Positions 11,979 through 57,635 of a DNA stretch of 64,000 bases are shown here, piece after piece. A program made the position numbers and the translations under genes. The stretch is from Candidatus Borrarchaeum weybense (lineage in GTDB: Archaea > Asgardarchaeota > Sifarchaeia > Borrarchaeales > Borrarchaeaceae). The notes below the pieces were generated by a model that did no database searches, had not been told where the DNA came from, and worked only from the letters and a program-made list of their open reading frames with translations. The stretch lies in contig JAHQJS010000006.1 of assembly GCA_019057385.1 (NCBI GenBank), forward strand, positions 452,938 to 516,937, in the 5' to 3' direction. Position 1 is the first letter of the stretch, and each line of letters begins with the position of its first letter.

Positions 11979-12102
11979 TGGCGGCTCCCGAGCGGATTTT
12001 CGTATTCATTTTTGAATTTTACAAATATATCGAACCGCAAGCCCTCATCGAGCTACCGGGTTTGAAGCCCGGTGCGCGAGACCACTCGTGCTTTCGGGAG
12101 CC
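11979..12102 (-). tRNA. selC: tRNA-Sec (anticodon UCA) with 32-nt BHB intron in the T-loop (intron 11997-12028)
   Basis: 9-bp acceptor GGCTCCCGA/TCGGGAGCC, G discriminator plus CCA, long D-stem, anticodon arm CCGGG-CTTCAAA-CCCGG, long variable arm, 4-bp T-stem GCGG/CCGC; BHB helix TTCG/CGAA with bulges ATA and AAT. Confidence 0.95.
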
Positions 12103-49508: not shown

Positions 49509-49844
49509 CTATTTTTGGATGTATAATTGTTTCGTCAAACCGCGGACATCGACTATAACCTTTTCAGGAAGGAATGCCTGCACTTTAGGATCCATATAGA
49601 TGGAAAGTTTGCTGACTTTTCCAATAAGAGAAAGTCGATTATTTGTTTTTGTATCCTTTTCTGGAACAAGGGCAACTTCTGGGGTGGCTGTACAGGTTTT
49701 AGATCACTTTCCCGAGACATTGAGCCAGAATACCAATGCAAGGTTACCGCTTTTCCGCAGTTTGTCTGAGAGCCATTTTCTAGCCTTCTGAGACAGACTT
49801 ATCTTTAAGGAAACCACCTCTTCTTTTTTACGTTTCAGTTTCAT
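49509..49844 (-). CDS. HesB-like / CC-Se-motif-like selenoprotein (Sec codon 47 at 49704-49706)
   Basis: 111-aa frame with one internal TGA: KISLSQKARKWL..VSGK-U-SKTCTATPEV..SIYMDPKV; downstream SECIS; tRNA-Sec in window. Confidence 0.75.
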
Positions 49845-54453: not shown

Positions 54454-54506
54454 GCGCAAAAGTTGTCATAACAAGAAAGAAGGTAAAAGGGGGCGGCCCT
54501 TTTTTT

Positions 54507-54543
54507 TCAGCTATACTACCCATGCGTTTCAGTATAGCCTCAT
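54507..54543 (-). ncRNA. Eukaryote-like SECIS element overlapping the stop codon of the PDO selenoprotein gene
   Basis: ATGA-GGCTATACTG-AAA-CGCATGGG-TAGTATAGC-TGA; 9-bp stem GCTATACTG/TAGTATAGC. Confidence 0.88.
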
Positions 54544-55220
54544 TCTTTACCTTCTGATAACAGTTTATTCACGAATTTGTCTAAGTTTGGTACGCCCACA
54601 AATGTCCTTTCTTCATTAATGACTGTAGCAGGGACACCGGACACGCCGTATTTTCTAGCGAGATCTTGATGTTCGTAGGCTTCGATTGTATCGGAGATGA
54701 CTTTTCCTTCGGACTCTATGGATATCTGGTTTGCTAGTAGTACAGAAGCTGGACAGAATGGTCAATCCCCCACAAGTGAGGAATAATCTTCTTCACATGT
54801 TGTAGGTGTGACCACTGTCCGAACTACCACTGGTTTCTGGATCTCTATCAGTTTTTCTTTTAAATGTCCTAAATCTGTGGTTTGAGTTGAAACCATTACA
54901 AGTGTTTGAATAAATGCCGCAAATTCTCCTCCGGCGGGTATGCCTGTGTATCGTATTCCAGTCAATTCTCCTCCTGATTCTATACGAATAGTGGGAGGGT
55001 ATTCAACTTCGTATTTTGCTGCTAACTCCTTTTGAGTGTCGAGCGAGATCTCTTCAACTGTAATTTTGTCAGTAAGTTCAGTGAGTGTCTTACAGATTTC
55101 AATGGTATCGGCACATGCTGGGCAGTGGATATCTGATGTGAAAACCTTTAGCGAAATAGGGTTTTCTAGTTTCTCTAATTCCCGTCTGAGTTGAGACCTT
55201 CCAGAAGGTGAGATCAACAA
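54540..55220 (-). CDS. Protein-disulfide oxidoreductase (double thioredoxin fold) selenoprotein with CPAC and UPFC active sites
   Basis: Frame continues 73 aa past TGA 54762-54764 (PFCPASVLLANQISIES..GVPATVIN..FVGVP), colinear with paralog 57003-57635 in which CPHC aligns to UPFC; SECIS downstream. Confidence 0.88.
54766..54801 (-). other. 36-nt in-frame insert, candidate BHB/BHL mRNA intron
   Basis: Absent from the paralog; flanked by GTGGTCA/TGACCAT helix, 3-nt bulges ACA and GAT, internal hairpin; removal gives VTPT-U-PFC. Confidence 0.5.
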
Positions 55221-55254
55221 AATTCTCTCCTTTATGGATTTATAATACTCTCTG

Positions 55255-56615
55255 CAAGAAGACCCCCAACTTGTTGGGGGGATGAATTGAGTATTTTACG
55301 TTTTTCACTTTCACAGTAGTGTCCCCCAGCTTTAAATAGGTTTTTGCGTATAGTAACTCTCGTGATATGAATTTTCAGGGGAACACAGGGATACGTATGA
55401 TGACACGGACGTACAAATATCGCTTGTATCCAACCACACAACAGGCAACTACGTTAACGCAATGGCTGACCACCTGTCGTTGGTTGTACAATACCTCGCT
55501 TGCTGAACGCCGAGATGCTTGGCATACTCACCAACACTCAGTCAGCTATTATGAGCAAGCCACCCAACTACAAGTCGTAAAAAAGACTAATCCGTTTTTG
55601 AAGGCGGTGCATTCTCAGGTGCTCCAAGATACACTTAGAAGACTGGATAAGACCTTCCAGAACTTTTTTAGGCGTCTTAAGAAGGGGGAAAAACCAGGTT
55701 ACCCACGCTTTAAAGGGCAATACCGATATGATTCCTTCACTTACCCGCAAAGTGGGTTCTCACTGGAAAAGAACAACAAGAAACTCCGGCTCTCGAAAAT
55801 TGGACGTATCACCATTACACTCCACCGTCCGATACCTACTGAAGGCGTGATCAAGACCTGTACCATTACACGCGATGTCGACCACTGGCATGCCTGTTTT
55901 GTAGTAGAACTGCCTGATCCCGCTCTTCACACTCAGAAAAGAGCCATAAAGAAGGCGATAGGGGTGGATGTCGGGCTTAAGAGTTTACTGACGTGTAATA
56001 ACGGAGATACCATCGCTAACCCCCGTTGGTTAAGACACTCGGAGAAGAAAGTAGCCAAAGAACAGAGAAGAAAAGATAGAAAGGTTAAGGGCTCAAATAA
56101 CCGTCACAAGCAGAACAGGAAGGTAGCACGGTTACACCGGAAGATACGTAACCAACGGAAGGACTTTCATCACAAGCTTAGTCGAACACTGGTCGATACT
56201 TATGACCTAATAGTGTATGAAAACTTAACGATTACCAACATGGTGAAGAACCATCATGTAGCCAAGTCGATTAGTGATGCGGGCTGGGGACAACTGATGT
56301 GTTTTACCGAGTACAAAGCGGAGGAAGCTGGTACTCTGGTAGAATATGTGAGTGCCTATAATACCACACAATTGTGTAGTAGGTGTGGGAGGATTGTGCC
56401 GAAAACACTGGCAACCCGCATCCACCGCTGTCCTTACTGTGGTCTTGATGTAGCACGAGATCATAACTCGGCCATCACGATTTTACACCGATCACGCAAC
56501 TATGTAGCATCACGATCATCATCAGGGCAGGAACTGCCCGTAGAGCCTGTTTGACATGTCCCGTTGGGGAATGGATGATTCAGGAAGCCAGCCTACTTGT
56601 AGGGTGGTAGTTCAC
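55255..56615 (+). mobile_element. IS200/IS605-family element carrying tnpB only (IS1341-like)
   Basis: Left end CAAGAAGACCCCCAACTTGTTGGGGGGATGAATTG; right end CAGGAAGCC..GGTAGTTCAC; no tnpA; exact left boundary uncertain by a few nt. Confidence 0.9.
55397..56554 (+). CDS. tnpB: RNA-guided endonuclease TnpB
   Basis: TYKYRLYP HTH, GYPRFK, RuvC D (GVDVG), E (YENL), Zn finger CSRC/CPYC, D (RDHNSA) all intact. Confidence 0.95.
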   Translation: MMTRTYKYRLYPTTQQATTLTQWLTTCRWLYNTSLAERRDAWHTHQHSVSYYEQATQLQVVKKTNPFLKAVHSQVLQDTLRRLDKTFQNFFRRLKKGEKPGYPRFKGQYRYDSFTYPQSGFSLEKNNKKLRLSKIGRITITLHRPIPTEGVIKTCTITRDVDHWHACFVVELPDPALHTQKRAIKKAIGVDVGLKSLLTCNNGDTIANPRWLRHSEKKVAKEQRRKDRKVKGSNNRHKQNRKVARLHRKIRNQRKDFHHKLSRTLVDTYDLIVYENLTITNMVKNHHVAKSISDAGWGQLMCFTEYKAEEAGTLVEYVSAYNTTQLCSRCGRIVPKTLATRIHRCPYCGLDVARDHNSAITILHRSRNYVASRSSSGQELPVEPV

Positions 56616-56635
56616 GTTAGTGACTTGAACATCAT
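56520..56635 (+). ncRNA. Putative TnpB reRNA/omegaRNA scaffold plus guide (guide starts 56616, GTTAGTGACTTGAACA)
   Basis: GGGCAGGAACTGCCC hairpin overlapping tnpB 3' end through the right-end hairpin; boundaries approximate. Confidence 0.65.
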
Positions 56636-56646
56636 GCTGTCAAAGA

Positions 56647-56905
56647 GTGAACTAGCCTACAACACGTTAAATAATCTTCATATGGAGGATATATAGAATT
56701 GCAGCCAACTCTAATAGACTCTTAGCATGTTGAAATTAGACTAACTTACCTAAAACTAAGCAAGAAAGCAACAAAGCTTCAGCGTGAGGTAGTCCACCTA
56801 AAACTAATTAAAGTCTTATGAGTTAGTTATCAGGTATCTTGAATCAAGGTTCTTGAAGTTTTCTAGCAAAAAAGAAAATGGAATATTTTTAGGATAGTAG
56901 TTCAC
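56647..56905. mobile_element. Cluster of degenerate IS200/IS605 end remnants
   Basis: GTGAACTAG (56647, inverted), CAAGAAAGC..GTAGTCCAC (56761-56797), GTAGTTCAC (56897-56905). Confidence 0.5.
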
Positions 56906-57002
56906 TTCTACCTAAACCGGAGATAACGAGAAAGTCCAAATTGTCCTAAAATTGGCTTTGAGACCATCTTTTGTCTATATCTTCTATTCTTTTAGTGTAA
57001 TC

Positions 57003-57635
57003 TCATTTTCTACCTACCGTAATCAATTTATCGACGAATTTTCCAACGTTTGGAACGCCCACGAATTCTTTCTGTCCATTTATGATCGTTGCAGGTACTC
57101 CAGTCACTTCGTATTTCATAGGTATTTCCTGATTTTGATATCCCTCTACTATATCTGAAATAACTACGCCATCGGATTCAATTGATATTTGGTTTGCCAT
57201 TAGAACTGATATTGGGCAGTGTGGACAACGTGATGTGACGATGGTTTTGACAACTATAGGTTTCTTAATCTCCTTTATTTTTGCCTTTAAATGGGCCAAT
57301 TCCGTTTGTCCGGTTGAAATCATTACGAGTGTTCTAATAAATGGAGCGAATTCGCCACCAGCCGGAATACCAGTATAGCGTACCCCACATCCTTCAATAA
57401 TAATTGTAGGCAACCATTTAACCTTGTATTTTGCTACTAACTCCTTCTGAGTGTCGAAAGATATCTCTTCATATGAGATTTTTCCATTTGAAAGTTCAGT
57501 GAGGATCTTACAGAGTTTAACAGTATCCGCAGCTGTGGGGCAGTTATTTTTTGATGTGAAAACTTTTAAAGAAATTGGTTTTTCGAGGTTATCAAATTCC
57601 TGTTTCACTATCTCTTTAACTGAATCAGACATCAT
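57003..57635 (-). CDS. Protein-disulfide oxidoreductase, Cys paralog (CPTA / CPHC)
   Basis: RYTGIPAGGEF, VTSRCPHC, GVPATIING. Confidence 0.9.
   Translation of the reverse strand: MMSDSVKEIVKQEFDNLEKPISLKVFTSKNNCPTAADTVKLCKILTELSNGKISYEEISFDTQKELVAKYKVKWLPTIIIEGCGVRYTGIPAGGEFAPFIRTLVMISTGQTELAHLKAKIKEIKKPIVVKTIVTSRCPHCPISVLMANQISIESDGVVISDIVEGYQNQEIPMKYEVTGVPATIINGQKEFVGVPNVGKFVDKLITVGRK

Follow-up and report, generated by a model that had tools for sequence, protein, structure and literature searches.

Does a thioredoxin-like gene end at its first in-frame TGA, or is it read through that codon as a selenoprotein? This question is raised by a gene on the minus strand (55220..54540) of the 64,000-nucleotide (nt) stretch of Candidatus Borrarchaeum weybense DNA analysed here, the window, to whose positions all coordinates refer. 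Under translation table 11 the open reading frame (ORF; 55220..54762) starts at a TTG (55220-55218) and stops after 152 codons at a TGA (54764-54762), while read-through of that TGA adds 73 further codons up to a second TGA (54542-54540) and gives a product of 226 residues. We find it very likely that the gene encodes a protein-disulfide oxidoreductase (PDO) containing selenocysteine (Sec, U) and built of two thioredoxin folds, one with the motif CPAC and the other with UPFC, and that the Sec codon is decoded by way of a 3′ selenocysteine insertion sequence (SECIS).

A first-pass annotation of the sequence had proposed a selenoprotein of this double-thioredoxin-fold type with U at the attacking position, a proposal that every test we ran supported. 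In particular, it had noted that the frame behind the TGA is colinear with a cysteine-containing paralog 1.8 kb away and that the TGA falls on the first Cys of the C-terminal CxxC motif. Alignment bears out both points: the read-through product and the 210-amino-acid (aa) Cys paralog (57635..57003) are colinear over their full length (56% identity, E 9e-90), and the TGA stands opposite the first Cys of CPHC in the paralog and of CPYC in solved PDOs. Full-length sequence alignment to the PDO structures 1J08, 1A8L and 2HLS gives E-values of 1e-33 to 1e-26; by sequence comparison only, residues 8-222 align with residues 9-223 of 1J08 (E 9e-33) and residues 2-222 with 1A8L (E 2e-31). The product also scores 199.9 bits against the NCBIfam model TIGR02187 (PDO_seleno_TRX, protein disulfide oxidoreductase; cut-off 185), against which the Cys paralog reaches 187.6 bits.

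Thioredoxin-type domains were found by Pfam in both halves of the read-through product. The 5′ part of the gene (54802..55220, minus strand) runs from the TTG start through the N-terminal thioredoxin fold with its CPAC motif to a Thr codon that is split by a 36-nt insert (54766..54801), to which we return below. The putative Sec codon itself (54762..54764) encodes the U of UPFC, where the first helix of the second fold begins, and the 3′ part of the coding sequence (54540..54761) comprises the remaining 73 codons and the terminating UGA and holds the second fold, with Thioredoxin_3 at residues 152-219. This 3′ stretch has no ATG, GTG or TTG near its start and begins within the CxxC motif. The 152-aa truncated product is on record in NCBI and Logan.

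Like the archaeal PDOs of P. furiosus (1A8L), P. horikoshii (1J08) and A. pernix (2HLS), with which it is colinear over the full length, the window protein has two thioredoxin folds, belongs to TIGR02187 and places its motifs at the columns of their N-terminal CxxC and C-terminal CPxC. Those PDOs differ from it in having Cys, not Sec, at the attacking position, in sharing just ~30-35% identity with it, and in lacking both the 12-codon insert and a 4-residue SGGE(L) insert of the window protein. Bacterial members of the family carry a SECIS hairpin directly behind the UGA and use SelA and SelB. The window gene is set apart from them by a 3′ kink-turn SECIS 219 nt away and by the PSTK/SepSecS/EFSec route, although it shares both the family model and the position of Sec with the bacterial AhpF-N-terminal-domain-like (Grx-like) UxxC selenoproteins (PMC13188914).

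If the TGA is decoded, it should be kept in related genomes and the sequence behind it should be constrained. The same TGA is present in every relative fetched, namely the orthologs of Candidatus Borrarchaeum yapensis (G004) and Candidatus Sifarchaeum marinoarchaea (G001) and 9 metagenome/Logan contigs, at 74-98% protein identity, so that the Sec column is conserved among these Asgard relatives. Across 400 genomes of the phylum, the in-frame TGA is confined to the Sifarchaeum/Borrarchaeum genus among the best matches listed. Selection behind the codon is not relaxed: the between-species ratio of nonsynonymous to synonymous substitution rates (dN/dS) is 0.04-0.05 for the 73 codons behind the TGA, indicating strong purifying selection, versus 0.09-0.13 before it. 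Elsewhere TGA is an ordinary stop, terminating both the PDO gene itself (54542-54540) and the neighbouring TnpB gene (56552-56554).

The SECIS element that the first-pass annotation had placed about 220 nt downstream of the TGA is indeed there. It occupies 54478..54555 on the minus strand and consists of a lower stem (54555-54546 paired with 54487-54478), an AUGA core (54543-54540), a 9-base-pair (bp) upper stem (54539-54531 paired with 54517-54509) that is capped by a 13-nt apical loop beginning GAAA and is followed by UGA, a closing GA (54508-54507) and a small GC hairpin (54500-54488). The hairpin starts 219 nt 3′ of the Sec codon, and the UGA of its AUGA core is the gene’s own stop codon. 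Folded as a whole, the 106 nt that follow the stop did not differ from shuffled sequence in stability (z -0.12), the signal residing in the hairpin proper (z -4.0 against shuffles) and in the comparative fold. For the latter we compared single-sequence folds of 8 distinct variants from relatives, replacing a MAFFT-based RNAalifold analysis of three sequences that was partly misaligned. By minimum free energy, all 8 variants adopt the same three-helix layout of lower stem, kink-turn core with upper stem, and small GC hairpin. One position of the upper stem shows A-U, G.U and G-C exchanges among the variants, and the lower stem shows several compensated changes, in which synonymous changes in its 5′ strand, formed by the last codons of the gene, are matched downstream.

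The stop codon lies inside the AUGA core in the window gene, in G004 and in several relatives, and again in the VhuD selenoprotein gene of the same genome (G000:C4:638607, where G000 denotes the genome of the window), which has the same SECIS layout at its 3′ end. In the metagenome relative L062 (L-labels denote metagenome/Logan sequences) a UAA stop directly precedes the SECIS core, while G001 and L069 have a GUGA core after a UGA stop. A strict SECIS descriptor gave 12 matches in the genome versus 2 in a shuffle. Only 3 of the 12 lie behind frames that contain a TGA, namely the PDO gene, VhuD and a CC/Se-like candidate described below, and this tally should not be taken as a census of the selenoproteome. 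With its AUGA...GA core, 9-bp upper stem, 13-nt loop with a leading A-run and 3′ location, the element resembles the eukaryote-like SECIS of Lokiarchaeota and other Asgard archaea (Mariotti et al., 2016, PMC4989117; PMC11227280), and it falls within type I of the eSECIS-like elements as defined in PMC11227280 (core GA_[G/A]A, stem 7-15 bp, loop 8-20 nt). It differs from them in that the core UGA is the gene’s own stop, or the core directly follows the stop, in most variants found here, and in the small GC hairpin that separates the core from the lower stem’s 3′ strand. We did not find the sequence of the window SECIS in those supplements of Huang et al., 2024 (PMC11227280) that were searched.

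Decoding of the UGA would also require a dedicated tRNA and its enzymes. A tRNA-Sec gene had been claimed for the window, and we located it on the minus strand at 12102..11979, with anticodon UCA and an encoded CCA end. Neither ARAGORN nor Rfam at its gathering score detected this gene because its T loop is interrupted by a 32-nt intron (12028-11997); Rfam RF01852 at a relaxed threshold (E-value scan) gave a weak match of 23.6 bits. Once the intron is removed by hand, the sequence is recognised by ARAGORN as tRNA-SeC(tca) with a 9/4 cloverleaf, and in its fold the acceptor comprises 9 bp and the T stem 4 bp. By inspection, the intron is bounded by a canonical bulge-helix-bulge (BHB) motif of the hBHBh′ form, with helices GCGG/CCGC and UUCG/CGAA and bulges AU|A and AA|U. 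Lokiarchaeota are reported to have a similar T-loop intron, of 31 nt, in their tRNA-Sec (PMC4989117).

The genome further encodes SepSecS (489.9 bits), EFSec (286.5 bits), whose gene directly adjoins a PSTK-like gene, and a SelD whose own gene contains an in-frame TGA. The Sec machinery that the first-pass annotation had wanted to see confirmed is therefore present, with the PSTK-like gene below its strict cut-off. Taken from sequence, these data strongly support the prediction that UGA 54764-54762 is decoded as Sec by the tRNA-Sec of the window together with machinery of the archaeal/eukaryotic type (a PSTK-like kinase, SepSecS, Sec-containing SelD and EFSec).

Several points nonetheless weigh against this assignment. 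The PSTK-like gene scores 185.8 bits versus a strict equivalog cut-off of 290.5. Contigs from two RNA-labelled public sequencing runs (X19 and X20) cover parts of the gene only, which does not prove its transcription, and stretches lacking coverage carry no weight either way. Selenium in the protein is a prediction rather than a direct observation, the 36-nt insert leaves doubt about the exact residues flanking Sec in the mature protein, and the electron donor and substrates proposed below are extrapolated from distant characterised homologs. Other explanations of the TGA can also be considered. Were it a nonsense mutation, the gene would be left either as a pseudogene or as a thioredoxin cut down to a single domain, with the Cys paralog supplying the function; annotation pipelines do call just the 152-aa N-terminal product, and the full-length paralog lies only 1.8 kb off. 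We consider this highly improbable, since the TGA recurs in every relative, in different species and many samples, the codons that follow it change more slowly than those in front, and the SECIS shows compensatory changes; moreover, G004 and G001 have the Sec gene and gave no match for a close Cys paralog (G001 being just 69% complete). Only the open frame speaks for a changed genetic code, with TGA as a sense codon genome-wide, or for two halves that are separate genes, and we see next to no chance of either. A changed code is contradicted by the ordinary TGA stops in the window, and the ORFs that table 11 gives around the site have full-length matches to Pfam families. As a separate gene, the part behind the TGA would have to begin inside the CxxC motif with no start codon at hand, and the dedicated Sec machinery of the genome argues against both variants.

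A further uncertainty concerns the assumed protein sequence only and not the selenoprotein assignment. The 36-nt insert (54801-54766, minus strand) is in frame and free of stop codons and places 12 extra codons exactly between VTPT and UPFC in the window gene and in a subset of relatives; if translated, it would yield 12 residues there. It is missing from the sister species, from the Cys paralog and from all solved PDOs and PDO homologs compared. The insert is single-copy in the genome, and a repeated mobile element was rejected as an explanation, there being no second copy in 4.18 Mb. We lean slightly towards the alternative that these 36 nt are a BHB-type intron which the tRNA splicing endonuclease removes from the mRNA. 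In that case the mature protein would have 214 aa, with VTPT joined to UPFC in the peptide VTPT-U-PFCPASVLLANQ, and the published 226-aa model would hold 12 residues that are not made.

We compared contigs of four public runs (X4, X17, X19 and X20) with the window over 54480-55300. A 248-nt contig of run X17, whose source is given as METATRANSCRIPTOMIC, matches the window at ~98% identity and has 54765 and 54802 directly adjacent, so that exactly 54766-54801 is gone and the joint is unambiguous, whereas a 552-nt contig of DNA run X4 retains the insert, as do all 9 distinct products on record for this clade and all its DNA assemblies. The X17 library is ambiguous, however: its strategy field reads WGS, for which reason it was marked ‘RNA? 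(probably DNA)’, and splicing rests on this one contig at a depth of 7.6. Even if the contig were DNA, an intron would account better than an ordinary indel for a precise loss at the BHB positions within a flank of the insert type. That flank, typical of alleles with the insert, is the one seen in the joined contig, while insert-less DNA alleles use other codons there; the codons GUG GUC ACA, which pair with UGA CCA as the outer exon helix, occur only in insert-bearing alleles, and insert-less alleles cannot form that helix.

On the mRNA strand the cuts would be AC|A and GA|U, each between the second and third nt of a 3-nt stretch, as in BHB introns, where cuts fall between the second and third bulge nucleotides (PMC2738675). 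The two stretches flank a CCU/GGG central helix and an 8-bp inner hairpin and are enclosed by an exon helix of 6+6 bp to which the UGA belongs. The inner helix measures 7-8 bp, the outer helix 6+6 bp, and the 5′ bulge (ACA) is clean, but the motif belongs to the relaxed class: its central helix forms 3 of 4 pairs and is preceded by a surplus C, and the 3′ cut falls in a 2x4 internal loop. Relaxed BHB motifs are common by chance (bioRxiv 10.64898/2026.10.13.758758). The fold of the insert region has a z-score of -3.3, and of the two variable bases in the insert, one converts a U.U mismatch of the inner hairpin to A-U and the other lies in the loop. Over the insert and the 13 codons upstream of it (25 codons in all), insert-bearing genes down to 79% protein identity show 0 synonymous changes where 9.9-11.9 are expected (P 1e-4 or less). 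Recent gene conversion could also explain this lack. L062 and the window share 94.7% nt identity, yet none of their synonymous differences falls within the ~190 nt (54670-54860) that surround the insert and the Sec codon, whereas 20 lie elsewhere in the gene, a pattern that points to RNA-level constraint or to recent exchange around the UGA.

That the insert is a multiple of three and stop-free is what a translated sequence would show, though the combination is met by chance in ~1 of 5 cases. The enzymatic means for splicing would be available: the genome has two EndA splicing-endonuclease genes (PF01974; G000:C4:663774-664019 and G000:C5:195898-196158; 99.1 and 76.8 bits), whose separation would suit an enzyme of two subunits and broad specificity, the tRNA-Sec of the window carries a canonical BHB intron, and the lineage is reported to be rich in non-canonical tRNA introns (bioRxiv 10.64898/2026.10.13.758758). 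The BHB intron in the cbf5 pre-mRNA of Crenarchaeota (PMC2738675) is a parallel, being likewise a short insert in a protein-coding gene that forms a hairpin with cuts between the second and third bulge nucleotides, and two EndA genes are present here. Unlike the cbf5 intron, the insert described here has a relaxed motif and is in frame and stop-free, and its presumed splicing is represented by one contig of an ambiguously labelled library. In those parts of the literature that were searched, BHB introns in coding sequences are documented essentially for cbf5 only. On balance, the evidence tips narrowly towards a BHB-type mRNA intron spliced by the endonuclease, whose outer exon helix would pair with the UGA Sec codon and which may, as one unit with its flank, have been conserved or have spread in the Sifarchaeum/Borrarchaeum lineages. 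Because the insert is in frame and stop-free, such an intron, if real, would be invisible to annotation and hence translated into the published protein model.

As to how the gene product would be made and used, we suggest that the 3′ kink-turn SECIS would bring EFSec with Sec-tRNA-Sec to the UGA that lies 219 nt upstream, while the second UGA would terminate translation because it lies inside the SECIS itself. By analogy with characterised PDOs and AhpF, the C-terminal UxxC would accept electrons, probably from thioredoxin reductase, and pass them on to disulfide or peroxiredoxin-type substrates with Sec as the attacking nucleophile, and the protein would accordingly be expected to act as a disulfide reductase or isomerase that is itself reduced by thioredoxin reductase. 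Homology to the N-terminal domain of AhpF extends over both folds (1ZYN and 1HYU, E 3e-6 to 5e-5; TIGR03140, 57 bits), which suggests a role as an electron shuttle to a peroxiredoxin. Unlike AhpF, the window protein is free-standing and has no fused thioredoxin-reductase-like module. Identity as AhpF itself was rejected, the scores lying far below the AhpF cut-off.

The neighbourhood of the gene offers a view of its history. G004 has the gene order FdhD, Sec-PDO and a convergent nth gene, whereas in the window the Cys paralog (57003..57635, minus strand, with the motifs CPTA and CPHC) and an IS200/IS605-type TnpB gene (55367..56554, plus strand; Pfam OrfB_IS605, Cas12f1-like_TNB and HTH_OrfB_IS605) lie between FdhD and the Sec gene. 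In L070, FdhD, the Cys paralog and the Sec gene stand in tandem with no insertion element, and the TnpB element (region 55221-56700) is missing at the equivalent place in both G004 and L070. At 55243-55300 the depth of DNA run X4 rises and loose ends occur, as would be the case where a repeated element ends. The 3′ end of the Cys paralog (56935-57005, minus strand) aligns to the SECIS of the Sec gene, keeping AUGAG, the A-run and part of the 3′ arm but having lost the closing GA and several pairs. It looks like a fossil SECIS, suggesting that the paralog is a duplicate that reverted from Sec to Cys after duplication, with decay of its SECIS. In our tree, the placement of the Cys paralog as sister of the Sec clade was not resolved. 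The Sec gene would itself have arisen within the Sifarchaeum/Borrarchaeum genus from Cys-containing PDO genes.

A second selenoprotein candidate lies elsewhere in the window. This 111-codon frame (49509-49844, minus strand) has one in-frame TGA, in the motif GK-U-SK, and a TAG stop, and is followed on its 3′ side by a SECIS-like element (49472-49437, with a GC hairpin at 49432-49419) that folds into an AUGA...UGA hairpin with the three-helix arrangement of the PDO SECIS. A paralog with the motif SSS-U-SG and the same type of SECIS is found elsewhere in the genome (G000:C4:174498-174878), and G004 has two homologs with a TGA, one of them ~2.5 kb from its Sec-PDO gene. The candidate has no Pfam match and matches NF041239, the ‘CC/Se motif family (seleno)protein’, weakly (22.5 bits; cut-off 40). 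Its family is absent from the seven Asgard families of Huang et al., 2024.

How much of this is new? The first-pass annotation had suggested that a double-thioredoxin-fold PDO may extend the set of archaeal selenoproteins, a suggestion that fails because gene, family and SECIS type were published in 2024 for the same genome. The entry Sifarchaeia_GCA_019057385_U in the supplementary FASTA of Huang et al., 2024 matches, by eye, the read-through translation 55220..54543 residue for residue, with X at the TGA and the 12 extra residues treated as protein. The other three entries correspond to orthologs found here, and eSECIS-like elements are given for them (PMC11227280). A 2026 review places the family (TIGR02187, UxxC) among archaeal selenoproteins and names it among the families in Asgard archaea (PMC13188914), and the NCBI model TIGR02187 is itself named PDO_seleno_TRX. 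Apart from the history of the paralog, our interpretation of the gene is thus already in print for the identical sequence. We found no discussion of the 36-nt insert, of the stop inside the SECIS core or of the decayed SECIS of the Cys paralog in the searched text and supplements of Huang et al., 2024, and the candidate intron at the Sec codon may be the sole new point on the PDO gene.

As a selenoprotein, then, the PDO gene adds nothing to the record, and what our analysis provides is an independent confirmation of the published call by selection, covariation, machinery and an intron-containing tRNA-Sec. Beside the candidate intron, the second small selenoprotein candidate is worth following, its family lying outside the seven of the 2024 survey. 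If real, the intron would be one that interrupts the mRNA of an Asgard selenoprotein gene; if it is spliced, the published protein model would be wrong at the active site, and mRNA splicing by the tRNA endonuclease in Asgard archaea would extend to a recoded gene.

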